Source: Moniliella sp. 'wahieum'
Taxonomy: Eukaryota
Direction: 5' to 3'
Length of the DNA stretch: 32,394 bases
NCBI GenBank assembly: GCA_003971905.1
Contig: RSEE01000223.1
Location: forward strand, 1 to 32,394
Shown: positions 1 to 32,394 of the stretch, in pieces
How positions within the stretch are numbered: the first letter of the stretch is position 1
Layout: the number at the start of each line of letters is the position of its first letter
Notes under the pieces: generated by a model
What the model saw: only the letters and a program-made list of their open reading frames with translations
Databases searched by the model: none
What the model was told of the DNA's origin: nothing
Position numbers and translations under genes: made by a program

Positions 1-617
1 AAGCTCATCCCAATGCAGGCCACCACGCCTTGGCAGATTTGGCCTCTGGGTGGGGAGCTGGGTCCAGGTTGCTGACCATCTCTCAGAACGTGGACGATCT
101 GTGTGAACGCGCCAACCACCCTCGGGCCTCCCTGCTGAAGCTGCATGGCGATATTATGACCGTTCGCTGCACCTCTCTTCATTGTGATTACGAAAAGCAA
201 GACTTGACCCACCCCTTGACCCCTGCGTTGGGACGAGTACCACCACTCAGCGAGCAGTCGGCGGGCGAGCCCGATCAGCCCACGATTCCAGTCTGCGACC
301 TGCCTCGTTGCCCCAAATGTGCTTCTCTTCTGCGTCCAGGGGTTGTGTGGTTCGGAGAGCAGCTGCCCCACGACGCACTTGAGCAGACCGAACGCTTCTT
401 TGAAAAGGGTGTGGACCTGCTACTAGCCATTGGTATGTCAGCTTCAGTATATCCGGCCGCTGGTTTTATCGATCAAGTTGAGGAGGCCGGGGGGCGGGTG
501 GCTGTTTTCAACCCCGACCCATCGGCGGGGCGTGACTCCCATTTTGATGGATGGCACTTCCAAGGGGATGCTACTGATTGGCTTCCCCGCGTTCTAGCTC
601 CTTTCTTAAAGCAATAA
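1..617 (+). CDS. Sir2-family NAD-dependent deacylase, 3' part
   Basis: Frame from base 3 reads AHPNAGHHALA...SQNVDDL.ERA...LHG...C..C...CPKC..LRPGVVWFGE...GMSASVYPAAG...FNP, all sirtuin motifs. Stop at 615-617. About 280 aa when joined to 32169-32394. Confidence 0.93.
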   Translation, partial: AHPNAGHHALADLASGWGAGSRLLTISQNVDDLCERANHPRASLLKLHGDIMTVRCTSLHCDYEKQDLTHPLTPALGRVPPLSEQSAGEPDQPTIPVCDLPRCPKCASLLRPGVVWFGEQLPHDALEQTERFFEKGVDLLLAIGMSASVYPAAGFIDQVEEAGGRVAVFNPDPSAGRDSHFDGWHFQGDATDWLPRVLAPFLKQ

Positions 618-717
618 GAAAGATACAAGAATCTTGTGGAGGCGCAACAGATAAAATAGTAAAGCATGCCAATGGTACAGAAGGAGAGGCATATGTTTCT
701 TCTCGATGCGGTTCCTT

Positions 718-2870
718 TTACTTATGTTCCCCTTTCCTCCTCCCGCGCGGCATGTGTACCATCCTTTTCAGGTTGCCCTGGCCCTCCGGTTTTAACGTGT
801 TTTCGATAAAATCGACGTTCCCAATCCTAACACTGATGTGTGGCATCTAATACTTCTGCAACAGGGATCGGGCATTATGATGCTTCCTTTGCTGTCAAAT
901 TTCGGCTCTCTGGGGTGCACGAGCAATCAGCAGCAAGCGAACAATGTAGTAGCCAGCCAAGACCACGCCGGGTTGCATGCCGGAAGCTGCAAGGGTATCG
1001 GGTATGAGGCTCACGGGAAAAAACAATCAAAGGTCGCAGTCGCTGATGGCAGTTTGGAGGGAGATCCTGATAGGGAAGTCGTCAGTCTCGGTCAAACACG
1101 CGAAGTGTAAAAGGCGTAGGATACGCACAACCAGCCATGAAGGTCAGTCTCTGTTCTGGAAAGGAGCAAATACGAATTGGCTGACGTGAAAAGCGACAAT
1201 ACCGCAGGAACCTAACCAAGACAGGGGGTCAGTCTCCGTGTGCAAGGGGTGGTCCAAAGGAAAGGAAACGTACTTGACACACAACCGGCCAAGCTCGCTA
1301 CTGATCTCGACCGTCGAGTTGGCGTCAATGCGCACAGCGCCTTCCAACACTCGGCGGCGCGGGTTCGCCTCATTAAAGAAGAGTAAGTGCGGCCCGAACA
1401 GAACGGTCCATAGACGGGGCCAGGGATCGATCTCAGGACGAGATGCATTGGTGGGACGACGGGGAGGGTGCCCGTTCGCTGCTCGGACTGGATCCGTGCA
1501 AATGCGCAGCCAGCCGCTTCGTCTGTTTGCCCCAGCCGAGGTGGACATCCGCGCCCCCGCCACAGCGGAGGCAAGGAAGGTGTTGACTGGGCCGACCAAG
1601 ATCGTCGTCTGTAGTGTCGGCTCCTTCTGTCCAATCTTCGAGGCAGGCGCGCCGTTCTCACCAAGGGGCACGGAGTGGGGAGTCCGTTGAGGTTGATAAT
1701 TGAACTGCACCAATGTTAGCTAGGTTTCGGCATAGCGAGCACAACTTACTTTGCCCATCCGGTCATACTCGGTGGCGCGACAAGCACTTTGCCACAAGGC
1801 CACAACCCGCTCTATCGACATGGGTTGAGATCGAGGTGGGTTTACGGGAGAGAGTCGTGGGTCGTCCGACGTTAAGGTATGGTCCGTTGAGCTCGGCGGC
1901 GTATCTTGCCCCACGAAGCTCGGCACCAGAGTCGGCCGATATCGGTGCAGTAGATGTCGGGCGAGAGCTTTCGGATTGCCATGGATCAGGAGCGGCCCAA
2001 GGGTCATTCGTATCCAGGTCATCAATTTGACCGGGGCCAGTTGACATGGTGGTCGAGTTGGCCCACACCTCCAACGGAGAGGGTTCGGCTGGGGTGAAGG
2101 CCGAAGGTTGTCTTGCCATTTTGCAACTCGGGAGATGTAGCAGTCCCAGGAGAAGAAGGGGGGGCGGCTGCAGGGAAGGTACGAGCATCTAAGAGAACAC
2201 GGGTGGCCTCCACGTCCGCACGGAGGATTTGCTTGCGCGTACTGTCCGAGTACGCACCAAGGAGAGAAAGGCTTCGTGGCCGCCACACGCGGACCGGCCC
2301 TGGCGACGATCCAGCCACCTCCGAGATGATCGGTAAGGAAACAGTATTTTTTGCAGAAGTGGAGGCCGGGCTGTCGACGAACTGATCCGATGCCTGCACC
2401 AGTTGGACGTCAAACAGTTCCGTCACAGTTGTGACGGGTTCAGGGGCTTGTCCGACCCGACGGGGCACCGGCGCGTGGCGGGCCCTGCGGAGGCGCCGAG
2501 GGCGGAGCACTGGCGCGCGGCGGGCCCTGTGGAGGAGCCGAGGGCGGAGCACCGGTCCGCACGGGCGGGGGCGCTGCGTTCGAGAGCGGCGGGTACTGGC
2601 GATGGCGCGGAGGGTGCGACATGGTATCTTCAGCCCAACCTCGGGGCAGAAGGCAGAGGTGGAGGTGGAGGTGGAGGGGAGGTGGAGGTTCAGATGGATG
2701 CTGCGGGCCGTGGGGGCGGGGGGTGACATGGAGCGATGCATGATGCTCGCAATGGCCCCAGAGCAGCCCCAGTGCCGACACTGGCCCCGCGCCTTCACGC
2801 TGGTGAGCGACGAAGCAACGGGACGGGTGACCCCCACACTGCCCTTGTCCGTGTCTACGTCATGCACGGG
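718..2870 (-). pseudogene. Decayed intron-containing gene of unknown function with a Pro/Ala-rich repeated N-terminus, probably TE-associated
   Basis: Overlapping minus-strand ORFs (2440-2781, 2022-2867, 1763-2188, 1720-2286, 1144-1713) and a GTAAGT...CTAAC...CAG intron at about 1705-1749. The 1144-1713 frame continues to about 718 through four isolated TGA/TAG stops. The 5' boundary is approximate. Confidence 0.5.
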
Positions 2871-3518: not shown

Positions 3519-4601
3519 ATGTCCACTACTCTTCCCTCCACCGCTACTGCGTGGCGTGTGCATAAGGCGGGCTTGCCGCCTGTGACGATGCAAAAAGAAG
3601 AGGTGCCGCTCCCCAAGCCGGGCAAGGGCCAGATCCTAGTCGAGGTCCGCGCCAGCTCGATCAACCCAGTCGACTGGAAGCTTACTGCTGTCGCGCCAGC
3701 TTTCTTGCAAACCTGGCCCCGTACGCTGGGTAGCGACTTTGCTGGCATTGTTGCCGATCACGGCCCCCCTGAGTGAAGAGCAGAAGAAGACCTTGCCTAT
3801 TGGCGCTCGCGTGTGCGGGCTCAATGATGCGGGTGACGTGGCATTTACGAAGCTGCCAGGCACGATTGCGACCTATACATGCTCCAATGCAACCTGCGTT
3901 GCGCCCCTACCGGAGCGCCTATCCTTTTCCCAGGGTGCCGCGCTCCCTCTTACCTCGCTTACTGCCCTCAAGCTCTCGTCTTACGTCAAGGCCGGCGACC
4001 GCGTCCTGGTCCTGGGCGGTAGCACCAGTGTCGGCCTCATCCTCATTCAGATCCTCCGCTTCCTTGGGGCCAAGTCATCATCACTGCCAGCGCTTCGGGG
4101 GAAAAAATTAAGGTGGTCAAGTCGCTGGGCGCAGACGAAGTGCTGGATTATCGTGCGGTTTCGCTCCCCACTGAGCTGGCCCAGTCCCATGCCACCAACA
4201 GCACCGAAGCTTTCGACGTTGTGCTTGATTGCGTTGGAGACTTAAGCATTTTATACGCGTCGGACAAGTTCCTCAAAAAGGACGGGGTCTATTGTAACAT
4301 CGGGGCAACGGACCTGCTGCCAGGCCAGAGTCTCGGAGCAGTGTTAAAGTTCTTGTGGAGTCGGGCGCGCCTGGTGCTACTACTGCCTCGATTTTTGTCG
4401 GGTGTGCCAAGGACATACAAGGAAGAGATGATTGACAAACTCCAGATGCCGGTCCTGGGCGCCAAGTACATCACTGCTGACGCCGCTACGTCGATCAAGC
4501 CCGTAATTGATTCGGAGTTTGCGTTTGACGAGGCCAAGGACGCATACCAGCGTCTCCTGACCAACCGTGCCTTGGGAAAAATCGTGATCAACGCGCCCTA
4601 G
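3519..4601 (+). CDS. MDR-superfamily (GroES-like) NAD(P)H quinone/enoyl oxidoreductase, Yim1/RTN4IP1-like; two apparent frameshifts
   Basis: Motifs VRASSINPVDWK, LGSDFAGIV, AALPLTSLTA, VLVLGGSTSVG, LGADEVLDYR, FDVVLDCVG, IKPVIDSEFAF and RALGKIVI are spread over three consecutive frames. Shifts lie near 3770 and 4080-4110. Confidence 0.85.
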
Positions 4602-6062: not shown

Positions 6063-6400
6063 CAGAGCGTTTCTTTTTGTCCCAGCCGTACTTCTTGAAT
6101 TCATATCATTGACAGAGCTTAAGGCTGGGACAGGGGGAACGCTACGTCTAAACCGAACCGTTCATCTTGCGGGGGTTACTTGGAAGCGCCACTAAGGTCA
6201 AGGAACCAGGGGATCGCCAGGATATCAGGACCCTCCGGCTCTCGCCATCCGGTCCCGTACCCTAGGAAGCGCGTGTGGACACGGAGGAACGTGGTTGACA
6301 TCCGAGCGAGGAACCATTTCCACTGAGACTTAGTAGCCAACTCCTTCCAATGCGCAAACAACTTGCCCGCCGTCTTGGTGCCGTAGTATCCTCGCGTACT
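6063..6400 (+). mobile_element. Unclassified repeat family, copy A: degenerate R-type end (6063-6087) abutting an L-type end (6107-6175), followed by a coding remnant
   Basis: CATTGACAGAGCTTAAGGCTGGGACAGGGGGAACGCTACGTCTAAACCGAACCGTT at 6107 recurs at 10444-10512, 20071-20126, 21155-21202 and from 25864. Segment 6176-6400 is an inverted homolog of about 20560-20940. Confidence 0.8.
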
Positions 6401-6469
6401 TCTGTAAATATTTAAATGAATGCGAAACGCAACATTAGGGTTTCTTTTGAACCGTGCCGCGCGTCTACA

Positions 6470-10443: not shown

Positions 10444-10512
10444 CCCCCGCAAGATGAACGGTTAGGTTTAGACGTAGCGTTCCCCCTGTCCCAGCCTTAA
10501 GCTCTGTCAATG
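10444..10512 (-). mobile_element. Unclassified repeat family, copy B (L-type end)
   Basis: Its reverse complement matches 6107-6175 at 68 of 69 positions. Confidence 0.85.
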
Positions 10513-11051
10513 AAATGGACGTGATCTAGGGTACAACCTTTGCCTGAGAAAGTTCTTGTATCGCCTCCTTTTTTCTGAGCGGACGGGTTGGGAAATTGTC
10601 GTTTAAGCACCAACAGCGCATCTCGGAGACCACCACAGACCTATTACAGCCCGGATTTCGTACTGGCTCACCATAGCTACCGTAGCCACCATTCCCGTCC
10701 ACTGTCCCTCCGCCAACCGCTGTGTGAGGTCCGGTTTGAATTATCACCCATGTAAAGTCCTTCTGCGCTGCATCTGCAGAACGCGGTTGTGTTACAACTA
10801 CAACCTCGTTGTTTTATATATGTTGGTGGAATTGTGCTTTTCCTCGACATCTGACGAGTGGGGCAGAGTCAATATGATCGTCCCTTTTTTGCTTCGTTTA
10901 AGACGAAGACACCTTATCTTCTTCAACGGTATCACAACCTCATGTTTAGTATTTCTTTATCGGATTGAGACCTTTCATGCGGTATTGTTTTGTCGCGGGG
11001 AGGGGGGAGCGCAACAGATATACACAGCAGAAGATGTGAGATGGGGGGGCT

Positions 11052-13887
11052 TCAGCGTGGATCAAGGTTAATAGAGGCTCGCGCCCCCATAATGTCAACA
11101 AGACGCTTTACTCCATACCACCATGCACTGCGACCCGTGCGATGTTTCATGTCGGCCTCCTTGGCCATGTCCCGGGCTAGGGTCATCTCGATTGATGAAC
11201 CACGGAAGGTGATGATAGCTGCTGATGTTGGGTCGTATCCCTCATTACTCTGATGGGATTGACGAGTATGGAAAATCACGTCTCCCATGCCCGTGTCCGA
11301 ATCTTCTTCCTGAATGTCCCGTACATTCCTCATCGAAGGGGTTGACCACTCTTCGTATTGCAGAAGCTCAGGGCGAGCCTTCCCTTCGAGCCACTGGCAA
11401 CTGCGAATAGCCAACCGAGTAGCACGACACCGGTCCAAAGGAGAAGGATTGCCCCCTTGCAAGGTATGGCCCAATGTCGCAGAACGAGCATCAAAGTGTT
11501 GCTGCCCCTCTTGTTTGAGAATAGAAGTCAGCAAGTCGGTTGTGTAAACACTACTTGATTCCTCGTTGCGGATGATCAGACGACCTTCTGACTTGCCCGG
11601 TTGGTCGAGACTGTACCGTTTTTTGAGCCACTCAACGTCTTTGTAGAGCTGGGAGATCGATAAGCCCATTTCAGGGATGTAAGTGAGGGCAGCATCTGTC
11701 GCCAATCCGCCCAAAACGGCCAAGAAGCCACAGTTTCCTCCTTGCGTCTCCACAACAAAACGCGATTTCGACTTGCCCTGGCAGACTGTTTAATGGCATC
11801 GCATGCGTCGACTAGAGCGTTGAGGGCCGTATCGGACCCAATGGAAAAGTCGTTCATGGGCACATTGTTACTCAACGTAGCAGGGATGGCAACAAGAGGG
11901 ATTCGGAATGCAGGATACTGAGTCCGGGCGTCGTCCATGAGCTTGACAGCATGGAACGACTCAAATCCGCCAATCAAAATTAACCCATCAAGGTCATGAT
12001 ACTGAATCTTAGCCGCCACCGCTCCAAAGTCAATGGAAGGCAGCACACGGTTTGTCCCTATTTCGGAGCCACCCCGAATACCCCAATTGTCAACACGCAA
12101 CCAGTCCACTTCCTGAACATTGTCCTCCAGTAATCCAGGAAAGCTGTTGGAAATCAAAAGGGGTGTGTGCCCCCTGCAAAGGAGATACCGCACTATGGCC
12201 CGAGTGGCCGCGTTCATCCCCCCCGCGGGTGCCCCAATATGCATGACGCCGACTCGGATGCGGTTCTCTGGTTCGACTGATCTTCAGGGTTGATTTGGGA
12301 AACGAATTTCCAAGCCTTGAGGTCCTCAGAAAATGCATCCCCCCGTGCACGTAAAGCATCGCCAAACCGTTTGTTGGCATAGCCACTGCCACCGCTTGGT
12401 CTGTTCAATGGCATCCTTGAGCGGTACACGAATTACTTTGCTCTCCGTAACCAATCACATACGAGGGGGTGTCCGGCGTAGATTGAAGCAATGTTTTGAC
12501 CGCTTCCACGGCTTGAAGGTGGAAAGGACAGGTCATTTGCATCCGGTTCCCCCCGCGCTGAGTGTGGCCGAGAGTGGTGACCCGTGTATCCAACCCAAGC
12601 TGCTCTGAAAGAACTTAGGCCACGTCGGCAGACTTGATTGGGTTGAGGTTTTTAGATGCCCCTTCTGCGACAATGACAATGGTCTTGCGTTTCCTGCCTT
12701 GCGGTTTGCGTCTGCTTCTCTAGAACGCGGCAATCTCCTGTCACCCACCCTTTCTCTGCCTCCTCCGACCCTTCTTCGGCTTGAAAATCATTGCACAGCG
12801 GAGGTTGTTCCGGGATGAAGATGTAGTCAGCGCGCAGAAGCGATTGGCACACTGCAATGCGATCCAGCCACAGTGTGCCCCATAACCTCGACAACAAAGG
12901 CGCGTGAGTGGGAGGCAGCAGTGGATGAAATGGAGTCGACGGCCTCGCATTGCACGCGCCAAGGCGGTAGGGGAGAGCAGCCAATGGTCATGTCAGTTGT
13001 GGCTAGATCATTGTCGATTGATCCCACTAGGCCCACAATACAAGATCTTGAACTTGTCATACTGAAGCTGGGTGATTTTTCCTTCGGAAAAGAGGGTACT
13101 GATATGATCCGGCCATTCTTTGCGTAGCATATCTGCCCCGGTCAGCTTCCATCGCCCCCACGACGGCAAGGCAGTCGATGCCATTGATAATCAAGTTGAG
13201 GGCAGCTTTCTGTCTACCTTCAAGTTCTCGGAACTCCTGACATCGTGCCGTACCAATCAACGTTCCTCCCTGAAGCACCACAGAAACGTAACATGTGCGT
13301 TAGGAACACTTGTGTGATGAAGTCAAGACAATGAATACAGAGAGGGGTGAAATGCGTACCTGCTCGGACCAGCCCCGAACGTCGTCCCACCCAACGCGGA
13401 TAATGTAGCGTCCCTTCAGTCCAGTATCCGACGCTCCACCTACACCTTCACGTAGGAGCTCACCGTAGCCATAAGTCGGAACAAAGCGCTGATGGCGACT
13501 GTACGGTTTCTCCCAAGGATAGCGGTACCCCGTACCAATTGAGATGCCGGGGATCTGGTCCACATTCGCCTTGGGTCCGAGTGCCGGGCTCGCCGCGGTC
13601 GAAACGGCGGGGCTGGCGAGAGGGCTGACAGCGCGGCTACAGGGCTCGGCATTGGCATTTCCATAAACTAATCCCGAGAGGCCCTCCCGGATAACATACG
13701 CTTCGCACCCCTTGTAGATTGCAAACTTGACCACAGCCCGCACTGCCGCGTTCATCCCGGCTGCATCCCCGCCCGAAGTCATTACTGCAACACGGGTTTT
13801 GCGGCGCTGCTGTCCTGTCGAGCCGCTTGTTTGCGTCGCCGCTGAGTGCGAGACCGAAGTGGAGTAAGCGCGTGCGTGCAAAGCCAT
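11052..13887 (-). CDS. PFK: ATP-dependent 6-phosphofructokinase (eukaryotic two-domain type); one intron and multiple apparent frameshifts
   Basis: Motifs [98 protein letters not shown] and [15 protein letters not shown]. Intron 13270-13359 (GTACGC...CTAAC...CAG). Confidence 0.93.
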
Positions 13888-15075: not shown

Positions 15076-15150
15076 GATGTCAGCGACGTCGCAAAAGAGG
15101 TCGTTGATGTCAGCGACGGCGCAAAAGAGGTCGTTGTTGATGTCAACGAT
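15076..15150. repeat. Subterminal tandem repeat, unit about 30 bp
   Basis: GATGTCAGCGACG(T/G)CGCAAAAGAGGTCGTT twice plus a partial copy. Confidence 0.75.
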
Positions 15151-18399: not shown

Positions 18400-19425
18400 G
18401 CAAATGATCCAGAAAAGATGTCGATCAAGATACCACAAGCGACGCACAAGGTCACGCCAGTGCCCCTGGGTAATAATTGTCGAATTCTTTAGCATGTCGG
18501 CCAGACAGCACGTTTTGCTGATGGTGCTCAAGAGTCTACCGCTCTGGGCGCCTCCCCACTAGATCCACCTTCAAGAGGGCCATAGCCAACATCATCCAAG
18601 AGGCGGGCAACGCTCAGCACAAGCTATTTGAATGAGGTGCGTTAACCCAAACCGCTAAACCATCTACTAACAAATAGAACAGCGTCCAGTTGCCAGAGAG
18701 CATGCACTGTATCGATCGAGGCAACGGAAGGCGCATTGTGCGCCTTCCAGGCTGATTTGGTGCGTCATAAGTTTCTAGTCTACTTTCGCAGCCTCTCTCA
18801 CCAAGAGCTCACTGCCGCCAAGCTGGTACGTACTGACCCCGCCTCTTCACGCGTTGCTCTCCTCGCAACATGGCCACAATAACTTACTTCACCCGTTCTC
18901 ACCAAAAGCGCTTCTGTTGCTACCCACCGAACGACATTGACTTCCAGAGGGAAATGAGACGTGTCTTACAACATCACAGCTTCCCTGACCCATCTGCCCT
19001 GTGCACCGTCTTGCTCAACCGGAGTCTGAACAACAGCAACCGCTGCAGCGACATTTTCAGTGCCATCACCGTCTCTTTGTCTGATCATAAGTACGTCGCT
19101 ACCCCGTTCTCGTCCAGCAGGTCATCTGACTTTTTTCACTCATCGCCCCGCAAGCTATCTACTGGGCTGAACGAGTGTATGGGAGAATTTCTAGGGCATT
19201 GCGGACACGCATCTTCGGTAAGGTAAGCCTGAAATTTGTACCGCCTGGCGTGCGACGCGTGTTGAACAACTCACCCACCACCGTCACATCGCAGTAACCC
19301 GGGTGCAAACCGAAGAGGAGTAGGATACATGGGACAACCAAGGCACTGCGGTCAACTTCTTTGACGCAGAGGGCACTGATGGCGAGGACGACGACCGCAC
19401 AGGCGACTCTGAGACTGAGGAGTGA
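18400..19425 (+). pseudogene. Decayed intron-containing gene with an acidic C-terminus, unknown function
   Basis: Intron-like segments 18637-18677, 18826-18908 and 19223-19294 (GTRMG...AG with CTRAC/CTCAC branch sites). The last exon reads ...FDAEGTDGEDDDRTGDSETEE* and internal stops are present. The start is not defined. Confidence 0.4.
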
Positions 19426-19629
19426 TTTAGCGCCTCTACATTCCCGAGAGCTCTCAACGGCGAGCCCCCAAATCCATATTGACCTATCGCAATGAAAAAA
19501 GTACCCTCGAAGACGATTGCACAGCATTCGATGGTACTAGAATGAGTAGTAGTATAAAATGTAATACCGATAGTAACCCAGGAAGAGCGAGCATACGAGG
19601 ATCAGAATCGTCAGATCCGTCGCCCAGGG

Positions 19630-19710
19630 GCACGTCAACGACGTATCTGACGTTCAAGGGGATGACGTCGAGTACGTATCTGACGTTCAAGGGGGTGACG
19701 TCGAGGACGT
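19630..19710. repeat. Tandem repeat, unit about 33 bp
   Basis: ACGTATCTGACGTTCAAGGGG(A/G)TGACGTCGAG twice plus a partial copy. Confidence 0.75.
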
Positions 19711-19796
19711 AACAAACCTGCTGACAGTGACAGGTTTGCACGTCCCCACAGCCAAAACACTCTTCTGACGTTTTTGAAGGTATTTTATACGAGGAG

Positions 19797-19844
19797 ACCA
19801 CCGGGCCTACGGCCCGGTCAGCTGGGGCTTCGCCCCAGCTTGGT
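19797..19844. other. Twin perfect hairpins (rabbit-ear structure)
   Basis: ACCGGGCC-TAC-GGCCCGGT (19800-19818) and AGCTGGGGC-TTC-GCCCCAGCT (19820-19840), flanked by ACC/GGT. Confidence 0.75.
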
Positions 19845-19855
19845 GCTGCGTCGCA

Positions 19856-19963
19856 GCCGCCACCGTAGCCACCGTTCCCCCGTCGCCACCATTGCCACCT
19901 TAGCCACCGTTCCCCCGGTCCCCCTCGCCACCTTAGCCACCGTTCCCCCCTTCGCCACCGTAG
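19856..19963. repeat. GCCACC-based compound minisatellite
   Basis: Repeated GCCACC(G/T)TAGCCACCGTTCCCCC units. A related degenerate stretch occurs at about 10670-10715. Confidence 0.7.
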
Positions 19964-20070
19964 TTATAATATCACCGATACGCGCTGGCTGCGGGTGGCT
20001 GGGAACGTGGCACCGGTCGGCACGTGCCTATGACGTAAAAGATGCACGGCGGATCAATTTTGCATATGTT

Positions 20071-20126
20071 AACGGTTCGGTTTAGACGTAGCGTTCCCCC
20101 TGTCCCAGCCTTAAGCTCTGTCAATG
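20071..20126 (-). mobile_element. Unclassified repeat family, copy C (L-type end)
   Basis: Exact reverse complement of 6107-6162. Confidence 0.85.
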
Positions 20127-20719
20127 GAATGCACACAACATAGAGATCTTGAAACATCTGTGACGTATTTTGCTGATCCGCTGTGTATACACGGTCGACT
20201 ACCATCGCGGTAGGGAGTGCTAGTCAACTCAGCTGGGGCCAGAGAAGGATGGGAGTCTAGGTCCTGAGAGGTGGGTTAGGTCCGGATATAGAAGAAAGCT
20301 GTGCCGACCTGGCTAGTCACTGGTTAGGCAGCATTACACGCTGGAGGATGTACCTTGAGGTCAAGCCTGAGGTGCATTGCATGACAGTGGGAGGCGTGAA
20401 CGGCAGGGGCGGAACGGGACCGACGCTCTGTGCTCCAAGAACCTCATGGAATCGGCATTGATCTCACTGGAATCGGCATTGATCTCACGGGAATCGTCAT
20501 CAACGTTCAAATAAAGTACCAGGGATGCACGCAAGAGCCGTTTTCCCCTCCTGGTTTTGACGACGCGAGAGGATATACTATTACGGCACCAAACAGCCGG
20601 AAAGATGCTTGCGCACTGGAAGGATTTGACTAGTTGACTACTGTGAATCTCGGTGGAAATGGTTCCTCGCTCGGATGTCTACCGCGTTCATCCGTGTCCA
20701 CACGCGCTACCTCGGGTAC

Positions 20720-20840
20720 TGTCACGGGCTGCGGCGGACTCGAGATGGTCCGACCGAAGCTAAGGCCCGCCTGCTCCGCACATGCCCAGTAGAGCGTGTG
20801 CTCTGCAGGCCAACCGAGTGTGTTACCGCAATCCGTGACA
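20720..20840. mobile_element. 121-bp TG...CA insertion (solo LTR or MITE) with 5-bp TSD GGTAC
   Basis: GGTAC|TGTCACGGGCTGCGG...CCGCAATCCGTGACA|GGTAC. The paralog at about 6255-6265 has a single GGTAC (empty site). Confidence 0.88.
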
Positions 20841-20964
20841 GGTACGGGACCAGATGGCGAGCACCAGAGGGTCCTGATATCCTGGCGATCCCCCTGGTTC
20901 CCTAGCCGTAGTGGCGCTACCAAGTAACTCACGCAAGATGAATAACCGGTTACGGGTCCGTTTA

Positions 20965-21154
20965 TGTCATAGTTTGTGGCTGATGTCGCTCCCATTTTCC
21001 AAATTCTTCGTCTCGAGCGTCTCGCTCCTTCCCTGTTTCTTCCACTTCGCACCATGTCCTCTGTTCTTGCTTCTTCCCCACGAACGATTGCTACACCCCT
21101 TGGCCTAGTCCGATTCTGGTCTCCCTCGCTGTAGCTGTAGCCCCGACTGTGACA
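20965..21154. mobile_element. 190-bp TG...CA insertion (solo LTR or MITE) with 5-bp TSD GTTTA
   Basis: GTTTA|TGTCATAGT...ACTGTGACA|GTTTA. Copies A, B and C have a single GTTTA at this position. Confidence 0.85.
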
Positions 21155-21242
21155 GTTTAGGCGTATAGCGTTTCCCTGTCCCAGCCTTAAGTTCTGTCAA
21201 TGATAGGGATCAAATAAGGTTTTGGATGTCAGCGAGATCTCG

Positions 21243-21710
21243 ATCAGGCATCATGCATCAGGCCTCAGGCCTCAGGCTGAGGGCTGAGGCCTGAGCTCAG
21301 GGCCTCAGGGGCGCCATGCCGATCGGTGAAGTCTCAGAGCTTAAAAGGGATTCGTAGGGTGACCGGTGAACGTTGAACTTCAACGTTGAAGCTGAAGGGC
21401 GACTGTCCTTGTGTGCTACCCAGGCCTTGAATTCGGCCATGATGCATGATGCACGATGCAGGATGCATGACCTGTGACCGGTGACCCTTTGTCACGCGTC
21501 AAGCTTCAAGTTCAAGCTTCACATGCACTTCACATGTCATGCATGTCACAGGGCTTCAGGCCGCCCTCATGCGTCACGCGTCACGCGTCAGGCCTCAGAC
21601 TGGAAAACGTTCAACGTTCAACGTTACTTCTTCCGGCGCGGCATCAAGGCATCCGTAACGCGTAACTGGTAACTCAGTGCATCAGTGACTCAGTTGAGTA
21701 CTAAGTGAGT
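21243..21710. repeat. Cluster 3 of TNA + palindromic 4-mer heptamer expansions (densest)
   Basis: CATCATGCATCAGGCCTCAGGCCTCAGG 21249-21276, GGTGACCGGTGAACGTTGAAC 21358-21378, CGTCACGCGTCACGCGTCAGGCCTCA at about 21572, AACGTTCAACGTTCAACGTT at about 21606. Confidence 0.9.
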
Positions 21711-21902
21711 CGATAGGTTGCGGCAGAAGCGAGGGCAAAGAGTGCGACAGCGGCGTAGCAACGGCATAAAATTTAAAAACCACACTGTCTTCACAGTGAT
21801 CTGGTCTCAGTTTCTCCGCCCCTTGTGTCTCTCGCTGCAGCTCCTCCACAGTTTCCACCAACCCCCACAGGCCCCGCCGTGCTTCGCCTGTTGGGGGGTA
21901 CA

Positions 21903-21956
21903 GAGAGCGTTTCTTTGTCCCAGCCTTAAAGCTCTGTCACATGTCACATGTCAATG
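21903..21956 (-). mobile_element. Unclassified repeat family, copy E (R-type end) carrying a 14-bp heptamer expansion
   Basis: AGAGCGTTTCTTTGTCCCAGCCTTAAAGCTCTGTCA[CATGTCA]2ATG. It shares AGAGCGTTTCTTT..GTCCCAGCC with 6064-6087 and is preceded by an imperfect hairpin at 21861-21899. Confidence 0.75.
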
Positions 21957-22334
21957 GTACAGTTACAGTATATAGAGATTTTGGCTTTTGCACGTGGTTG
22001 CGTGTGAGTACGCAGCGGCACCTTCCTTCAGGATTATTTTTCCACATTGACCTTGCGGCAACACGCAACTTTTCAGAAAGCACACTCTCACTGCACCTCA
22101 TCTGATGATGCACCGAGATGGTACAGTTGAACTTCCCCAAAAGGAATCGATTTCCCATGGTATATCGATGGTAGAAAGGTTGACTAGGCGTGGGGCCCCT
22201 TCTTTTTGTGCCGAAAGGCTGTTCAGGCGCGGTGGGGTTATTTCCCCCCCCCGCTATGCAAGGAACAGATCCATGACGCTGTATCGATGACAAGTTGATC
22301 AACAAGCGTGGGGGGAAGGAATATATATTAGTTG

Positions 22335-23425
22335 ACGATGATCGATGATCAATGATCAATGATTAATGGTCGATAATATATATAGTTAGCCGATAGCGCG
22401 TCCATAGCGGCGGCGTCTGGTTACCGGTTATATCGGTTATCACTGATGAAAGTACTAAAAGAGGTACTTCTTCCTAGGGCTATTTGTTAGTTTTGCTCTA
22501 GTGGTATAGTGATGATGAACATACTGCCAGGGATGTCAGCATGTCACAGGCTCATGTGCTGAGGCGGTGCTGAGGCGGTGCTGAGGCGTGCGGAGGCACT
22601 GAGACCAGAGGCAGAGGCAGGCAATAGGGAGGCCTAGTCACAAATTTACCTATACTGTTATTACTCTTATATACTGCTTGTTTCTTGGCTGTGGGTCTCC
22701 CAGGTACGTCTCCCTCTATGAATAGGGCCAAGGGGAAAGACCATCTTGTGGAGCTAATACATGTCTGTACTTGTCCTCCATTGGTAGTATTTGTGCTTAG
22801 TCCAATACCAGTACCAAAACGTAGTTCAGCGCACGTTCAACACGTTCAACGTTCAACGTTCAACGTTCAACGAACGTTCATCGATCATCGATCATCAGCG
22901 GCGTTCAGTGTCTTCAAGCTTGAAGCTTGAAGCTCACACGCGTTGAGACACGTTGACGGTTGAAGTTCAACGTTCAGATCTCAGATCTCAGAGATCTCAG
23001 ATCCATCAGGCGTCAGATTCAAATCTCACAGGCCCCAGGCTCATCCTGAGTATCTAGCCCACTCTCTGAGCCCACTTGCCACTGTCATCGACGTCATCGA
23101 TCATCGTCCACGGTTCATGCGTTCACTGCAACAATGGGGGGAGAGAACGGTTCGATATATCGTTGCAGGTCCGACTGGAGCCCCGCGGGGGTGTAGGAAC
23201 GGTGACGAAGTCCTGTTTCTCCTGCTAGTACTAACTATTCGACAGATGGGAGGCGAAAAGGAGGGGAATCGGAGCACTTACGCCGGTTTTTTGATGCGCA
23301 GTACAGACAGGGCCCAAAATGTGGTCTGAGATCTGAGGTCTAAGAAGATCAAAACCTCTTCACAAGCTCATGAGGCCTATTAAGGTCCAAGAAGGCGTAA
23401 GGCCTAAGCTCTTAGGTCCAACAGA
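22335..23425. repeat. Cluster 4 of TNA + palindromic 4-mer heptamer expansions, upstream of the MFS gene
   Basis: (TCAACGT)n at about 22843-22872, TCATCGATCATCGATCATC at about 22878, GTTCAACGTTCAGATCTCAGATCTCAGA 22965-22992, GGTTACCGGTTA at about 22419, TCTGAGATCTGA at about 23325. Confidence 0.88.
22554..22600. repeat. 11-bp tandem repeat
   Basis: (GTGCTGAGGCG)3 plus a degenerate copy. Confidence 0.7.
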
Positions 23426-23640
23426 TCTAGAGTCTCAAACGTTTCAAGTATTATAGGGGTTGTATCTGGCCAGACCGTTCTTGTATTAAAGCAGTGCCCC
23501 TCGTCGTGTTGGAAAGCATCTCACCAACACAGATTGCGACCTCTACTACTTCTACCTTTCACTCTTATCAGCATCTTTTTCCATCTCCATCACATCTTAT
23601 TAACTCTCTCCGTTATCGCGACGGCTCTTATTTGCCTGCA

Positions 23641-25518
23641 ATGGTCCTCAAGAAGCAATCAAACACCCGCGCGGACATCTTTCCTGGTAAGGAACAATAC
23701 ACTACAGCCGACGCTGACCACGAGGCAGCTGCAACATCCGAGGCGGAGACACATACAGCATCTCCCAGTATCGATCATGGTTCTGTAACCCACCTTAACC
23801 AGGATATCCTCAAAGAGGTATCGGAGGGCAAGATCATCCTCGTCGACTGGGATGGGCCTGACGACCCCATGAACCCCATGAACTGGTCGACGAGGAAAAA
23901 ATGGACCAACACCAGTCTCCTGTGCGCCATGTGCCTCTTCATCGGTTTGGCAACCGCCGCCTATGGTTCCGGTGTCTCAAGAATGTGCAAGGAGCTGAAT
24001 GCTGGTACGTCTATGCGCCACTATTTTTTGGGGAACAATGCTAACCATGAGATGGATTACACACAGGAATTGAACTTGGACGTGTGGGTTTTACCGTGTT
24101 CAACGTAGCCTTTGCCCTGGTACGTATTTCACCACTATACCCGCTTTCGCTTTGATGTGGGGAAATCCGTTGCTGATTTTTTTCTCCTTCGTAGGTTCCT
24201 CCTATTCTGGGGCCCGTGTCCGAGTTTGTTGGGGCGCAACCCGTCTACTTGATCTGCTACGCTGGGTTTGTTATTTGGTTCGTGGCTCTCTTTGAGGCGC
24301 AAAATATTTGGACAATTGTTATTGGCCGCTTCTTTTCGGGTTGTTTTGGAGCAGCCGGTGTGACGATCATTCCGGGAACACTCGCTTCAATCTGGCGTCC
24401 CAACGAGATCGGGCTACCTGTCGCGCTCTTCACCCTTGTCGCCGTGTTGGGCACAGCTGCTTCGCCTCTATATGCTGGATACATTGATGCGCGCCACAAT
24501 CTGGGCTGGCGCGCCATCGAGTGGATTCAAATGGCCATCAATGGCACCGCACTGATTCTAGAGTGCATCTTCCTGCGTGAGCCCCGTGGCAGTGCTCTCC
24601 TTTCGCGCCGAGCCAAGAAGCTGCGCAAGGAGACAGGCGATAACCGTTATCGCTCTCGAGATGAATTGGAAACGCCAAGTTTGAAGGAACTTCTCAAGGT
24701 CTCTACGACTCGTGCGGCGGTAATGATTGTGAAGGAACCAGTTGTCCTCTTCTTCTCCCTCTGGTTGTCATACATGTGGAGTTTGATCTTTGCCCTCTTC
24801 AGTGCCATTCCAATTGCCTTCTCCACAAAGCGTGGCTGGGGTGAAGGAAACACCGGTCTAGCTTACATTGGTCCAATCATTGGCACCTTCATTGGCTGGG
24901 TGTTCCTTTTCCACGACTCTTACCTCTACCAGAAATCTGCCGACGCACACGGTGGGCATGCCATACCCGAGGTGCGCCTGTACTACGGCGCCGCAGGGGG
25001 CATTGTATCCACTATTGGCATGTTCATTTTCCTTTACGGCCCCCTACACGTGGGTGCATTGGATCGCCCCCGAAATCGGCCTCGCTGTACTTCTGATCGG
25101 AATTGTGTGGGTTTTCCAATCGGTGCAGGCATATCTGACTGATGCGTACGGGGAGTCGAGTGCCTCAGCCATTGGTGCTCAAGGCTTCATTCGTAACCTA
25201 ATGGCCGCAAGCTTCCCCTTGTTTACCACCCAGATGTTCAACAACATGGGCTTTCAGTACGCTGGTCTACTGCTCAGTCTTCTGATCGCTATTGCCATCC
25301 CCCTTCCTTTCATCTTGATCTGGAAGGGCGCGTCCATCCGTGCTCGCTCGCCATACGCTGCCGTCCAGACCGAGGCCACGTTGGAAGGCCCAGTTAGTGG
25401 CACTGGACGTGCAGAGATCGATCGCCAGGATGCAAAGGGGGCCGAATCTCCAGCTGCCACTGACATCGAAAGCCATCCCACACAGGAGAAGGTGGCCGAA
25501 TCACCCATTCAGCCTTAG
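23641..25518 (+). CDS. MFS transporter, DHA1 (drug:H+ antiporter 1, Tpo/Flr-like) family; two introns and one apparent frameshift
   Basis: Motifs VDWDGPDDPMNPMNWSTRKKW, GPVSEFVG, IGRFFSG, LGWRAIEW, LRKETG, KEPVV, PEVRL, YLTDAY and FPLFTTQMF. Introns 24005-24066 and 24120-24194. Frame switch near 25040. Confidence 0.9.
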
Positions 25519-25856
25519 GCTTCTGTATTATCAATCACGTCACTTCATTGGAGGGGTATTAGTTCCCCAGGCAAGCTACAATGGCCCTGTTTTGTCTCGC
25601 ATCTTTCTGTCCCTCCCTTTCCTATTCCTGATCATTCATCACTTCTTGCTGCTCCTGCCCATTTGGTACTGAACGCCTATATATGTCACGTCTACATCAG
25701 AGATACTATAGCCTGGTGATTTTCATTCTATGTGCCGGTCTCCGAGTGCTCTCTTTAATACGCAGAACCAAGAGGAGAGAGTTGTCTGTTCCCATTAAAG
25801 TTTATGGTACCAGCCGGAGGGCGCACTCAAGAGCCTTTAATCGCCTTAATTATGCA

Positions 25857-25945
25857 TTCATATCATTGACAGAGCTTAAGGCGGGGACAGGGAAACTCTA
25901 CGCTCATCTTGCGTGTGTTACTTTTTGGCAGCGCCACTGCCACTG
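25857..25945 (+). mobile_element. Unclassified repeat family, copy F (diverged L-type end)
   Basis: TTCATATCATTGACAGAGCTTAAGGCGGGGACAGGGAAAC...TCATCTTGCG.G.GTTACTT...GCGCCACT matches copy A, with an internal deletion. Confidence 0.75.
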
Positions 25946-26321: not shown

Positions 26322-26836
26322 CCTTCGAATCTCTGATGACTCTTATGTCTCTCCGGCCAGTTACGAGATGAACATCAGTGTATTATTATAGAGATAGAGC
26401 AATGAATGTCCAAAATACTTGCCAAACAGGGGACAAATGAGTAATGACGATGTAGCCATCCCAAACCTACTGATGGATCTAAGCCTGAGCCAGTGAAGGT
26501 ACGGGTTGCTGTATACTTCGCATTATTTTGGTGTACCACACTGAAATAAATAAAAGCATTGCATGCGTTCGCGTTATGGCACCAACTTGTGACGGACACT
26601 AGGGTTTCGCCCTAGGGTTAGTTTCGTCGATCTGTGATTATCGACGTGGCATTTCTTCGCGGCGGCGCCACGTTGGCGTTGAACGAGACAAGCACCACCA
26701 TCGCTTCATCCGCCACCTTGCCGGCGAGCCCTTGAAGCACATCTTCTCGGTCTCCGCCTCTCTGCGACGCCACGTTCCCACCCATTCACTCTCCTTACCT
26801 CTTCTGACCCCCTTCTCGTTTCGCTCGCCGGCCGCC

Positions 26837-29623
26837 ATGGATTCGCCCGCGAGCAGCGTGCTGCGAGAGCGGCGCCGGCCCCTCAAGGACTCCGTGCCCT
26901 CCACTACCACAGACTCTTCTCCTGTTGGTGACATCTCTACATCCACTTCCAAGATGCGGACAAATCCCGCTCCCTCTTCACGACGGGCAGAGTTTGTCCT
27001 GTTTGCCTCGGTTCTGCTCGTGACCGCCGCCGTTCGCTTCTACCGACTCGGCCAACCAAGCAGCGTTGTGTATGTCTAATGTCTTCAGCCCAGCATGCTA
27101 TCTGGGTTGTGCCTCTGACGCGGATTCTCTCTCCTTAGATTTGACGAACTTCATTTTGGTGGGTTTGCTAGCAAGTACATCAACCGCGTCTTCTTCATGG
27201 ACGTACATCCGCCCTTGGCCAAGCTGTCGATCGCTGCTGCAGGTTGGCTGGCTGGGTTTGACGGCTCTTTCGACTTTTCCGAAATTGGCCGCGAATACCT
27301 CTATGGGCCGGACACGCCCGTACCATATCTCGAGATGCGCCTTCTCTGCGCCGTATTGGGCTACCTGACGCTTCCCGTGGCCTATTTCACTTTGCGTTCT
27401 TTGGGGCTGCGCGCAGCAACCAGCGCAGTGGGCACATTCATGCTTGGGCTTGACAACGCGTTGTCCACCCAGAGCCGATTGATCCTTCTTGACTCTCATC
27501 TTATATTCTTCACCGCTACGGCGGTCTTGGCCTACACCAAGTTTTCGCTTCTCAACGGTACGAGACCATTTACGAGAGCCTGGTGGCTTTGGCTCATTGC
27601 TACCGGCACCAGCCTGGGGTTAGTCGTCAGCGTCAAGTATGTGGGACTGTTCACGATCGCAACCATTGGCATTTTCACTGTGCTTCAGTTGTGGAACATC
27701 CTTGTCGATCCGAAGGTCGGACTAGTTCTGTTCGTTAAGCACTTTGTTGCTCGCGCCCTGTTCTTGATTCTGTGGCCTGCGTCCATTTACACGTTCTGGT
27801 TTGCTGTCCATCTGCGTGTCATCAACCGCTCTGGTTCGCAGGATAATTTTATGCCATCTGAGTTCCAGCACAGTTTACTCGGCCATGAGATGCTTCCTAC
27901 ATTCGCCGATGTGGCCTTTGGGTCGACCGTTACGATCCGCCATCTGAATACCCAAGGGGGGTATCTGCATTCTCACCCACACGCCTACGAGACCGGTTCC
28001 AAGCAACAACAGATCACGTTGTATCCTCACTCGGATGAGAACAACGAATGGCTTGTCATTCGTGCACCTCCGCTCGACGCCGAGGTGCCCACAGATGAAG
28101 ATGGTGTTCCTCTTACACTCGAAGGACCCCATGAGGTGGAACAACATCTCGACCAGCTGGAATGGCTTCGCAACGGCGACATTATCCGCCTAACCCATCG
28201 CACCTCGGATAAGCGCTTGCACTCGCATGACATTCGTCCGCCCATGACCGACGCTGATTACCAAAACGAGGTTTCGGCGTATGGGTTTACCAACTTTGCT
28301 GGTGACGGGAACGACAATTGGATTGTCGAGATCGACACTTCTCTTAGCCACGACAAGGAATCGCGCGAGAGGGTGCGCGCCCTTCGCACTGTATTCCGTT
28401 TGCCCCCCTTTTCGGGGTGCTACCTGTTCTCCCACCCTGTCGAGCTCCCCGAATGGGCCTTTTCTCAACAGGAGGTGACCTGCAACTCATCTCCCACCCG
28501 ACCCAATACGTTATGGTTCATTGAAACCAATGTTCATCCTATGTTGGAAGAGGAACCCACGGCGGTCAAGGTCAACTATCGCACTCCCTCCTTTTGGCAA
28601 AAGTTTATCGAGTTGCAAAAGGTAATGTTCAAGACAAATTCGGGTTTGACCGAGCGTCATGTGTACGACTCGCGCCCGTCCCAGTGGCCGCTGTTGCGCC
28701 GTGGGATAAACTTTTGGAACAAGGAAAGCCGACAAGTGTATTTGTTGGGCAATCCATTTGTCTGGTGGGCTTCTGCGGCAGCGACCTTGATATATTTGGG
28801 TACGCGCGTGTTGCTCATGCTACGAAGCAAGCGTGGCTACCCCGAATTGACCCGCCGCAAGGTTGTCTTTTACGATACCATCCTTGCGTTCCTCGTTTGC
28901 GGTTGGGCTTTGCACTACCTCCCTTTCTTCTTGATGGAGCGGCAGCTCTTTCTCCATCACTACCTCCCAGCGTTGTATTTCAGCGTTCTGATTTTTGCCA
29001 CAGTGCTGGACGCTGTGATGGGGGCACTACCCTCTCGTTATGCCCGTTGGGGCTTGGTCTCCCTCGTCGTACTTCTTACCACGGCGGCATGGTGGCGCAT
29101 CGCACCGTTGAGCTATGGATCACAATGGACCCTGGAGCAATGCGAGGCCGCGCGACTCCGTCAACCCTGGGACTTGGATTGCGTCAATTTCCCGTTTCAC
29201 CTCAGTGAGTATGCATCGCTCCCACCGGGCATCAAGACGGAGCCCAGTGCCCAGGAGATTGAAGCTGAGGGGGCGAAGCGCCGCCAGTCTAAGGCCGATG
29301 AGGCTGCCCGGCTGGTAGAGGAGCAAGACGCATTTATGTGGTACCGCAACCTCATCCACGACACGGGCATGCCCCCGGCCGATGACGATCCAGTGATTGA
29401 GACGTTGGAGGAATACCAAGCCTTCCAACAAGAGCATCCTGACTTCCATCCGTATGTGGTGTACCACATGCAGGCAAGCGGTGGTGGCCCCAGTTCGACG
29501 TCGGAAGAGGCCCATATCACTGGGCCCGACGATGAACCGTACAAAGTCAAGGTCGAGCCTGGTCGACATGCATTCGAGAATCCGCCCGCGGTGGCAGTGC
29601 AGAGTGGACCCCCACGCTACTAA
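26837..29623 (+). CDS. PMT1: Dolichyl-phosphate-mannose:protein O-mannosyltransferase, PMT1 subfamily; one intron
   Basis: Splicing 27070-27138 gives VVFDELHFGGFASKY...FMDVHPPL, the PMT1-type loop-1 motif. Also QSRLILLD, MIR domains (GGYLHSH, RLHSH), YLLGNP and RQLFLHHYLPALYF. Confidence 0.92.
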
Positions 29624-29736: not shown

Positions 29737-31848
29737 CTAGTCAGAGTCAGAATCGGTGTCTGTGTCCTCGTCTTCGCTTGAGCTCCCGCCCGAGGCATCC
29801 TCGTCCTCCTCGCCTTCATCCTCCGACCCGGCATCGCCATGGACAGGGGATCGCTTCACATTTTCCCCACGCATCAATGCCAATTGGCCCGCCAGCGTAT
29901 CTTCATCCGCCTCTGAAATATCGTCGTCGAAGTCATCCTCCGCATCGAGCACAGCGGGGTCTTCCACAGTCAGTCGCAACGCCTGTTCAGCGTCCGATCC
30001 AAGGAATGAATCAGAGCGCACGACTACATTAAATGTGTAGACACCAGCCGAAGGAGGAGCCGAGAAGGAGAGGGTGAATGTGCGTGTTGTAGTCCCCACA
30101 TCAGTTACTCGCGTAGGCTGGACCATGACGCGGTCTACCTTCGAGTCGCCAACGAAGACAACCCAATGGGGTTTTCGCTCGCCGATGAGGTAAGGGGCGC
30201 GAGCCGAGCCGATGGGGACAGAGCCAGCATCCTCCGGGCCGGCATCCCCATCGTCTACCTCAGGATGGGGGACAGTCTCTTTGGTCTCAGGACCGGTTTC
30301 TTTGGTGACCAAGATGTCCTTCGTCCGTCGGGCATCACCATCAACGCCATATTTAAGTAATTTAGGGAAATCGCCAGGCGGGGAAAGGCGGAGTTGGATG
30401 ACGAGCTGTACCAATGCCCCTGCAGTAACCAGCCGTTCACCTGCGACCTTGAACTGAGCACCTAGCAGCTGGATCCGGGGCCAGGCCTTGGCCACAGACA
30501 TCAAGCTAGCATACTCCTCCTCGTTCAGCCCCTTCTTGCCGTCGGTAAGGAGTGCATGCCGCTCATTCTCGGGCATGGCAACGAGGCCTTGAACACCCCA
30601 GTCAGCCCGGGCATTGGAAGCGCGCACCAGCTTCTCAGCAACTGGCAACGTCATGTTGGGCAGCTGTAGTAGTCCTGCTACAGCACGAGGCGCTTGGATG
30701 GGCACGGCCTGCACAATGCACTGTTGCAGCGCCAGCACATTCTCCGTTTGTTGGAACCAGTTGTGCCCAAGGCTAATTGACAACATCGACTGGATCAAGG
30801 GCAGTGCAGTAGAAGCAGCACGGTACTTGGCCTTTTCAAGCTCCGGACCAGAGGGTTTAATGCGCAACAAGTAAGCGTTAAGCAAAACCAGAGCACGTCG
30901 CACACTTTCCGAACGGAATGAAGAGGGTAAGGCGGCATCGGGGCCAAAATGCTTCAGTCCCTCACGTACCTGGCGCTCGAGAGCATCCAGTGCGGCTTGG
31001 CCAGTGTACGGCTTGCCTGATTTGGCAGAACGCTCAGCAAGCAAATCCAGACCTGGTTGGGAGAATTCCTCCGAGATGGCCAAAAGAGAGAGAAGGCGCG
31101 AGGCAGGCGTGTCGTCACGCAGGTTTTGGAAATAGGCTTGGGCAGTGGCATTGTACACGCCATCCTTGGTGCGTGACCGCGACCCATACCACCACCTGCC
31201 TACAAGCATGGGCAAAAGCAGGCCAAACACCAGGCCATAGGCACCCAAGACCCAAACATTGTTGTGGCTCTCAATGACCCAGGTCGGCAAGGCGATGCCC
31301 ATACTCATTTCCTGCCTCCCGTCGGGATGGCCATAAAGCTCGAAATTCTTGCGGATGGTCTCGTCAGTCAACGCCTTGTAGGCCTTGGTGAGCTCAATAA
31401 AGTGTGCCTCCGCATCAGAAGCAGTCTCGTTTGGGCCGAGCACAAGCTTATCGGGGTGGAACTTGAGACTGAGCTTGCGGTAGTGCTTGCGGACTTGCTT
31501 CTCGGTGGCCGAGGCACCAATACCGAGGATGGAGAAAGGGTCGTAGATTTTGTTGGGCGACGAGGCAGTGGTGGTGGAGAGTTTGTGGGCGAGGAGGCCC
31601 ACAGCCGCCCATCCGAGCAGAATACAGAGGGTGCGGAGACTGATGCGCGGGCCAAGACGCGTGCTGAGTGCGGCGACGGGGGGGATCTTCTGGCCAGGGG
31701 CGTCGAACGCGCCCTGGTGGGTGGAGCGGGTGCGGCGGCGGAGCGAAAGGCCGGACCACGTAAGCGGGACGAGCACGAGACAGAGGACGCTGATGACGAA
31801 GGTGAGGAACTGCGTCCCCTCGTCGTCGTACTTGTAGGACCCAGCCAT
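29737..31848 (-). CDS. SEC63: ER translocon subunit Sec63
   Basis: YKYDDEG N-terminus, transmembrane helices, J-domain with HPD (LKFHPDK), YGHPDG, GIALP.W, Brl/Sec63 domain (SDSFLGSD) and acidic tail. Intact 703-aa ORF. Confidence 0.96.
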   Translation of the reverse strand: MAGSYKYDDEGTQFLTFVISVLCLVLVPLTWSGLSLRRRTRSTHQGAFDAPGQKIPPVAALSTRLGPRISLRTLCILLGWAAVGLLAHKLSTTTASSPNKIYDPFSILGIGASATEKQVRKHYRKLSLKFHPDKLVLGPNETASDAEAHFIELTKAYKALTDETIRKNFELYGHPDGRQEMSMGIALPTWVIESHNNVWVLGAYGLVFGLLLPMLVGRWWYGSRSRTKDGVYNATAQAYFQNLRDDTPASRLLSLLAISEEFSQPGLDLLAERSAKSGKPYTGQAALDALERQVREGLKHFGPDAALPSSFRSESVRRALVLLNAYLLRIKPSGPELEKAKYRAASTALPLIQSMLSISLGHNWFQQTENVLALQQCIVQAVPIQAPRAVAGLLQLPNMTLPVAEKLVRASNARADWGVQGLVAMPENERHALLTDGKKGLNEEEYASLMSVAKAWPRIQLLGAQFKVAGERLVTAGALVQLVIQLRLSPPGDFPKLLKYGVDGDARRTKDILVTKETGPETKETVPHPEVDDGDAGPEDAGSVPIGSARAPYLIGERKPHWVVFVGDSKVDRVMVQPTRVTDVGTTTRTFTLSFSAPPSAGVYTFNVVVRSDSFLGSDAEQALRLTVEDPAVLDAEDDFDDDISEADEDTLAGQLALMRGENVKRSPVHGDAGSEDEGEEDEDASGGSSSEDEDTDTDSDSD

Positions 31849-32168
31849 GGCGGGCGGGAGGCGGTGGTGGGGCGAGCGGGAGCAGGCGCGGGTGCGACGT
31901 GGAAGAAGCAGCGGCGCGGAGATGCGTGACGTATGCGTGATGACGCTAGGGTTGTCTCTTGCTGTCTTCGGATCGAAGCGAGTTCAATGTTTCAACGTAC
32001 ACCGTTTGAATGTTCAACTTGGGCCTCCAGCGCTTCCGACGTCAGATGAAGCCTCAGATCCTCATAGATTGAAGATACGCAGGCGACACGACGCCCCAGG
32101 CGATCGCAGCCGCTGTCATCCGAGTTCATCTCCATCTCCCTTGCGCCACCCACAAACCCGCCCTGGAT
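31849..32168. promoter_or_regulatory. Probable bidirectional promoter between SEC63 and the sirtuin
   Basis: 320 bp separate the divergent ATGs at 31848 (-) and 32169 (+). Contains TGACGT (CRE-like) motifs. Confidence 0.45.
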
Positions 32169-32394
32169 ATGTCGTCCGACGTGGCCAGCTTCCAGGCGTA
32201 TATGGCGCAGTCGCGCCGGGTAGTTGCTTTGCTGGGGGCTGGACTGAGTGCATCCAGTGGCCTCGGCACCTTCCGCGGACCAGGAGGGGTGTGGCGCCAT
32301 CGCAGCGCCATGTCGCTCGCCTCACCTCAAGCCTTTGCCGCGGACCCGGGCCTGGTATGGTCCTTTTACTCTGCCCGGCGCGCGGCCGTGCTTC
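32169..32394 (+). CDS. Sir2-family NAD-dependent deacylase (class III, CobB/SIRT5-like), 5' part; continues in frame at window position 1
   Basis: ATG at 32169 opens MSSDVASFQAYMAQSRRVVALLGAGLSASSGLGTFRG...WSFYSARRAAVL with no stop before the window end. It has the GAGxSxxSGxxTFRG NAD-binding motif and the YxxR motif typical of class III (SIRT5-type) enzymes. Confidence 0.92.
   Translation, partial: MSSDVASFQAYMAQSRRVVALLGAGLSASSGLGTFRGPGGVWRHRSAMSLASPQAFAADPGLVWSFYSARRAAVL

Follow-up and report, generated by a model that had tools for sequence, protein, structure and literature searches.

The stretch of DNA analysed here is the contig RSEE01000223.1 of Moniliella sp. 'wahieum' (assembly GCA_003971905.1), taken over its whole length of 32,394 nucleotides (nt) and called the window in what follows. 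Six genes could be recognised in it, a sirtuin, a medium-chain dehydrogenase/reductase (MDR), a 6-phosphofructokinase (PFK), an MFS transporter, a PMT1-type protein O-mannosyltransferase and SEC63. We scanned with Pfam all 283 stop-to-stop open reading frames (ORFs) of at least 60 amino acids, and counted matches at E <= 0.01. The families that passed their own cut-offs were SIR2, ADH_N, ADH_zinc_N, ADH_zinc_N_2, PFK, MFS_1, PMT, MIR, PMT_4TMC, DnaJ and Sec63, which agrees with the list of six genes given in a preliminary description of this sequence. Three other matches did not reach theirs, Glu_dehyd_C on the dehydrogenase itself and two that seem to be due to chance (MRP-S34 and DUF4186). 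The gene that concerns us most is the sirtuin, which is cut by the two ends of the record and becomes whole when the last base of the window is joined to the first.

The 5' part of the sirtuin is located at 32169..32394 on the forward strand; it runs from the start codon through codon 75 and closes with the first base of codon 76. The remaining two bases of that codon open the 3' part, at 1..617 on the same strand, which continues with codons 77-280 and terminates in the stop codon at 615-617. Translation of 32166-32393 ends in ...YSARRAAVL, the Gln codon across the join is made of base 32394 (C) and bases 1-2 (AA), and translation of 3-617 begins with AHPNAGHHAL... and continues to the stop. 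At the DNA level there is neither overlap nor gap between the ends, and when the last 226 and the first 617 bases were joined by a script a single frame of 280 residues was obtained. The Pfam family SIR2, with 180 positions, is divided between the two pieces, positions 1-55 on the one at the 3' end of the window (E 3.6e-7) and positions 61-180 on the one at the 5' start (E 6e-22). Both pieces also aligned to SIRT5 chains of known structure, with E-values of 1.5e-17 for the end piece and 5e-31 for the start piece. Residues 3-73 of the end piece correspond to positions 4-74 of chain 7x3p_A (human SIRT5), and residues 2-199 of the start piece, aligned independently, to positions 80-269. In the numbering of this chain, positions 77, 78 and 79 are taken by the last residue of the end piece (76), the Gln and the opening residue of the start piece, respectively, so that the join neither adds nor removes a residue.

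The same was found when the joined sirtuin was aligned with MAFFT to nine homologues (P0003-P0007, P0009, P0010, P0012 and P0014), the best of its relatives being 76% identical. The stretch that goes from SFYSARR to HPNAGH, on both sides of the join, was free of gaps in all ten rows. Reading the printed alignments by eye, we found the HG motif and the paired cysteines (RCTS..C and RC..C) to be identical to those of the aligned human SIRT5 chain, and the Y-x-x-R stretch directly before the join to be identical to that of the aligned chain 6enx_A. We take the His of HG to be catalytic, the four cysteines to bind zinc and Y-x-x-R to be the acyl-recognition motif. With a whole SIR2 domain, collinearity and the key residues in place, the gene is predicted to be a class III (SIRT5/CobB-like) sirtuin, and the gene cut by the ends of the record is predicted to be normal and functional.

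The in-frame closure is real, and chance cannot produce such a join. The preliminary description had proposed that the two ends of the window meet in frame within one intact sirtuin gene, and the translation, the SIR2 match, the collinearity with SIRT5 and the alignment of homologues all bear this out. Given that the cut point is found at an arbitrary place inside an intact gene, the record appears to have been written out from something that was treated as a closed loop, by the assembler or in a finishing step. The preliminary description had offered four readings of the closure, a real circle, one unit of a tandem amplification, an assembler loop and a rotated linear sequence, and all four still stand.

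All six recognisable genes are complete in extent. SEC63 occupies 29737..31983 on the reverse strand in one uninterrupted frame, with a likely start codon at 31848-31850 and Pfam matches to DnaJ (3.2e-15) and Sec63 (4e-14). The PMT1-type gene is located at 26603..29623 on the forward strand, with an uninterrupted main frame at 27119-29623 that carries PMT, MIR and PMT_4TMC, and with an N-terminal exon within 26603-27079. This exon is indicated by tblastx matches of 26686-26808 and 26981-27070 to a metagenome locus (L002), just upstream of the body of the PMT gene of that locus. The MDR (3519..4595, forward, with ADH_N and ADH_zinc_N) is complete in extent and has two frameshifts; in a frameshift-aware alignment it spans residues 1-360 of the 362 of homologue P0243, with 214 of 356 residues identical and no stops. 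The MFS transporter (23548..25518, forward, MFS_1) was aligned to P0244, P0247 and P0250 and shows introns near 24000-24194 and one frameshift. Finally, the PFK (11055..13842, reverse) is complete in extent, its alignments reaching from residue 2 of P0126 through residue 690 of the 690 of P0123, and besides two introns, of 87 and 90 nt, its coding sequence shows 15 frameshifts and a single in-frame stop.

The nearest named relatives of the PFK are the PFKs of Ustilaginomycotina, with 60-64% identity over 629 shared columns, and three close relatives are 77-83% identical to it. We considered the possibility that it was a divergent paralogue and rejected it, since its identity to the Ustilaginomycotina enzymes is about equal to that of its three close relatives. 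The genes of the window are ordinary nuclear genes of common families, from a smut-related basidiomycete.

The frameshifts are distributed very unevenly. The frameshift-aware alignment of the PFK to P0123 contained 13 of them, with 542 of 679 residues identical, and the alignment to P0126 added two more, at 13160 and 13146. Fourteen of the 15 are concentrated in a dense patch of 877 bases (12284..13160), and the remainder of the gene has one in about 1.2 kb. The in-frame stop, placed by eye from the alignment to P0123, is also inside the patch, flanked by the frameshifts at 12714 and 12547. The identity to the outgroup P0126 was calculated for the PFK of the window, read through its frameshifts, and for three intact relatives. 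Outside the patch (357 columns) the value for the window was 0.627, and those of the relatives were 0.636, 0.650 and 0.619. Inside it (248 columns) the window gave 0.573 and the relatives 0.641, 0.641 and 0.681. The identity to outgroups is lowered in the patch only, and the deficit there is about the size expected from the residues scrambled beside 14 frameshifts. In the MDR the frame shifts near 3765, within six consecutive C, and again near 4079; in the MFS transporter it shifts near 25038-25047, where there are five consecutive C. Reading the printed contexts by eye, at least five of the 18 frameshifts of the three genes coincided with or adjoined homopolymers of five or six bases.

These interruptions might be thought to be real, in which case the window would be a decaying duplicated segment, a redundant copy (tandem or extrachromosomal) of genes with functional copies elsewhere. 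Frameshifts in three of the six recognisable genes, plus the stop in the PFK, would fit with this, as would the clean frames of PMT1, SEC63 and the sirtuin. However, natural decay should bring many substitutions and damage that is evenly spread. Instead, nearly all the PFK frameshifts are crowded into the 877 bases, the gene is outside them as conserved as in its relatives, and the proximity of part of the frameshifts to homopolymers also argues against decay, which we regard as a most improbable explanation. Many indels with few extra substitutions, unevenly spread and found at homopolymers, point rather to the technical error of a draft of the long-read type. The frameshifts of the PFK, the MDR and the MFS transporter are thus probably technical errors, and the region 12284-13160 has the look of sequence that the assembly left unpolished or poorly resolved.

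The window DNA has no machinery for its own replication or movement. None of the 283 ORFs matched a family of transposases, reverse transcriptases, integrases or recombinases, and none matched replication initiators, partition proteins, relaxases or capsids. Besides, a cloning-vector or plasmid origin was rejected, as the two halves of the window had no megablast match among 72,556 plasmid records, and so what would be expected of an autonomous circular replicon, either plasmid or virus, is missing both from the Pfam scan and from this comparison. The search for a telomere array in the window was also negative, the best candidate being one 12-mer with a mismatch, a result reached by 5 of 100 shuffled sequences. 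Neither tRNA genes nor Rfam families were found in the window. An excised giant element had been among the suggestions of the preliminary description. Starships, giant mobile elements that carry cargo, have a tyrosine-recombinase 'captain'. No gene for mobility was found among the ORFs of the window, and the traits of a Starship-like element or of an excised transposon are absent, as there is no recombinase or transposase family and there are no bounding terminal repeats or target-site duplication.

A different possibility is that a true circle of 32.4 kb existed outside the chromosomes, as an extrachromosomal circular DNA (eccDNA) or episome, excised or recombined from a chromosome and sufficiently abundant in the culture that was sequenced to be assembled separately. 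Head-to-tail closure, one of the marks by which an eccDNA is recognised, is present here at the level of the record only. The exact closure at an arbitrary position of an intact gene is as expected for an isolated circle in an assembly graph. The unit also carries an MFS transporter, and amplification of such transporters can be selected for. Gene-bearing eccDNAs have been described in fungi, as in the circularome of Magnaporthe oryzae (PMC9694575). Against this, a junction differing from the chromosomal arrangement was not found in the window, and none of the 283 ORFs belongs to a replication or partition family. SEC63, which is essential in yeast, and the seemingly orthologous PFK, if present as sole copies, would be located on an acentric and unstable circle. 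For these reasons we consider an eccDNA quite unlikely. A still more extreme version, a genuine and stable circular nuclear molecule of 32.4 kb with the sole copy of SEC63, PMT1 and the orthologous PFK, that is, a natural circular mini-chromosome without recognisable replicon genes, appears very improbable.

The preliminary description had expected a non-chromosomal junction inside the window, most plausibly in a block of transposable elements (TEs). No such junction was found; with all the recognisable genes complete, there was no truncated gene or abrupt break in the window, although a junction in non-coding DNA would be invisible without a reference. Nor did the TE block materialise, there being no TE-coding ORF among the 283 and just five short copies of one dispersed repeat (about 65-570 nt), in both orientations and intergenic, with the common core CCCTGTCCCAGCCTTAAGCTCTGTCAATG. 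Copy a (6091..6328) has the orientation opposite to that of copies b, c and d. Copy b (10444..10520) forms with it an inverted pair of 74 nt and 97% identity, with 4268 nt in between, and copy c (20071..20138) shares 64 nt with copy b at 95% identity. Copy d (20648..21218) is the longest and aligns collinearly with copy a on the opposite strand, and copy e (25853..25940) forms direct and inverted repeat pairs with other copies. Neither coding capacity nor a target-site duplication was seen in any of the copies. The longest repeats of the window are the inverted one of 74 nt and, among direct repeats, one of 64 nt followed by one of 40 nt; the direct ones are short for recombination or mis-assembly at a scale of 32 kb.

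Terminal repeats bounding the whole unit were not found; the pair of copies a and b, the one inverted pair of good quality, encloses 4.4 kb. This pair (6102/10517) was evaluated as a transposon and rejected. The enclosed 4.4 kb contain no transposase family and their ORFs, read by eye, resemble a membrane protein, and no target-site duplication flanking the pair was visible by eye. Between copies a and b, at about 7100-8700 on the forward strand, successive ORFs in differing frames resemble one hydrophobic membrane protein split by introns or frameshifts; these ORFs had no Pfam matches.

The largest part of the window with no recognisable gene is the region 14000..23400, where over 9.4 kb no Pfam family was found with the above thresholds. 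Smut-type genomes are gene-dense, and by comparison the region is unusually gene-poor. The GC content by codon position and a self-trained codon-usage score were also applied to the 14-23 kb interval, and gave a signal that was too weak even on known genes. We also read the sequence of 13900-21360 by eye, and noted stretches of some thirteen consecutive C, one near 14690 and another near 18310. If there is a hidden junction, it could be located in 14000-23400.

This last point bears on another explanation, that the window is a linear piece of chromosome and that some data handling, such as a finishing tool, rotated or permuted its record, with no circle either biological or in the graph and with an artificial junction inside. 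A junction in the gene-poor region would go unseen because no recognisable gene is present there. In addition, the exact 36-mer of the window start was absent from the two collections examined, genome_contigs and viral_contigs, so that no independent record of it was found there. But the six recognisable genes are complete in extent and the abrupt truncation of a gene was not seen, and we judge a rotated record to be unlikely.

The order of the genes was compared with other sequences by searching metagenome contigs with the PMT1 gene. Seven loci were found, six at 49-51% identity and one at 73% over 91 residues, the longest with 7,868 nt. None of the seven carried any other gene of the window, the extra tblastx matches being to a GAGGTG repeat or short, and a direct tblastn with six sirtuin sequences gave nothing below E 0.07. 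In one of them (L003) the neighbour of the PMT gene resembles an S-adenosylhomocysteine hydrolase, as judged by eye from the printed ORF. Of the orthologues, the sirtuin P0004 is carried by a contig of 17,968 nt and those of the PFK by contigs of about 8-10 kb.

Two further characteristics of the window can be described. Tandem arrays of period 7 are found at 6583-6608, 21438-21470 and 22842-22872, with others at 6945-6978 and 22338-22374. The units AGCTTGA, CATGATG and ACGTTCA each fit the description 'T-any-A plus 4-base palindrome'. The region 1144-2870 is GC-rich (58-65% G+C), with tandem repeats of 42 nt and 6 nt and long overlapping ORFs on both strands, none of which had a Pfam match.

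Putting together the closure and the character of the DNA, we infer that the window is, on balance, probably a loop of the assembly graph, derived either from a collapsed tandem duplication or from a spurious circularisation. It would be a whole self-closing contig of a draft assembly with many small indel errors, and the record would have been opened by chance inside the native sirtuin gene. Since a normal gene would have been cut fortuitously, the two ends would meet in the native chromosomal adjacency and not in a rearrangement. Reads would link the end of the unit of about 32.4 kb back to its start for one of two causes. Either the unit is present in tandem at least twice in the genome, and the assembler would have collapsed the copies to a loop, or the contig was wrongly circularised. 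We think that the tandem collapse is likelier than the spurious circularisation, and the likeliest single cause, as it would explain reads going from the end to the start without placing core genes on an acentric circle, and would need no combination of chimeric reads with a failed connection to the flanks.

Several points weigh against an assembly loop. A true circular molecule would give exactly such an isolated loop, cut at an arbitrary place. Neither an internal junction nor a second copy of the unit was found, and the tandem duplication is purely inferred. As for the errors, PMT1, SEC63 and the sirtuin have 11 homopolymer runs of at least five bases and yet not one frameshift, and the uneven spread of the indels may mean that the frameshifts are partly real.

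If there is only an assembly loop, it matters for curation. The sirtuin would be missed by gene callers, split as it is over the ends of the record, the PFK, the MDR and the MFS transporter would be called pseudogenes owing to the probable indel errors, and a region of 32 kb would be left unplaced on any chromosome. If the tandem amplification or the eccDNA were true, there would be a multi-gene copy-number variant (CNV), a transporter included, in a little-studied smut-related lineage, which would be moderately interesting and of a kind already described. A surprise would come only from a stable circle carrying core genes in their sole copies, an unlikely case, and unless the circle is free the interest is low. 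None of the four possible causes of the loop (tandem collapse, spurious circularisation, eccDNA and permuted record) is new in kind.

The joined gene matches SIRT5 chains over its whole length, and in the comparison with human SIRT5 and the bacterial CobB its best structural alignments are to animal SIRT5 chains, the nearest relatives being 76% identical. In yeast, DNA circles with GAP1, CUP1 and HXT6/7 have reportedly been found, and the CNVs of Candida are said to be bounded by long inverted repeats. The eccDNAs of Magnaporthe oryzae and of yeast resemble the window, as closed in the record, in being circles of tens of kb with ordinary chromosomal genes and dispersed repeats nearby. They differ in that they were reportedly established by circle-enriched sequencing with junction reads and had junctions at repeats or microhomologies, whereas no junction was found in the window. 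The expandable CNVs of Candida albicans, a case of tandem segmental amplification, involve long repeat sequences (PMC7371428), in contrast with the window, where inverted repeats reach at most 74 nt and direct repeats 64 nt. In the arrangement itself the likeness is closer, as a multi-gene unit repeated head to tail, like those of tandem segmental amplification, would collapse to a self-closing contig of one unit, which is the form that the window has.

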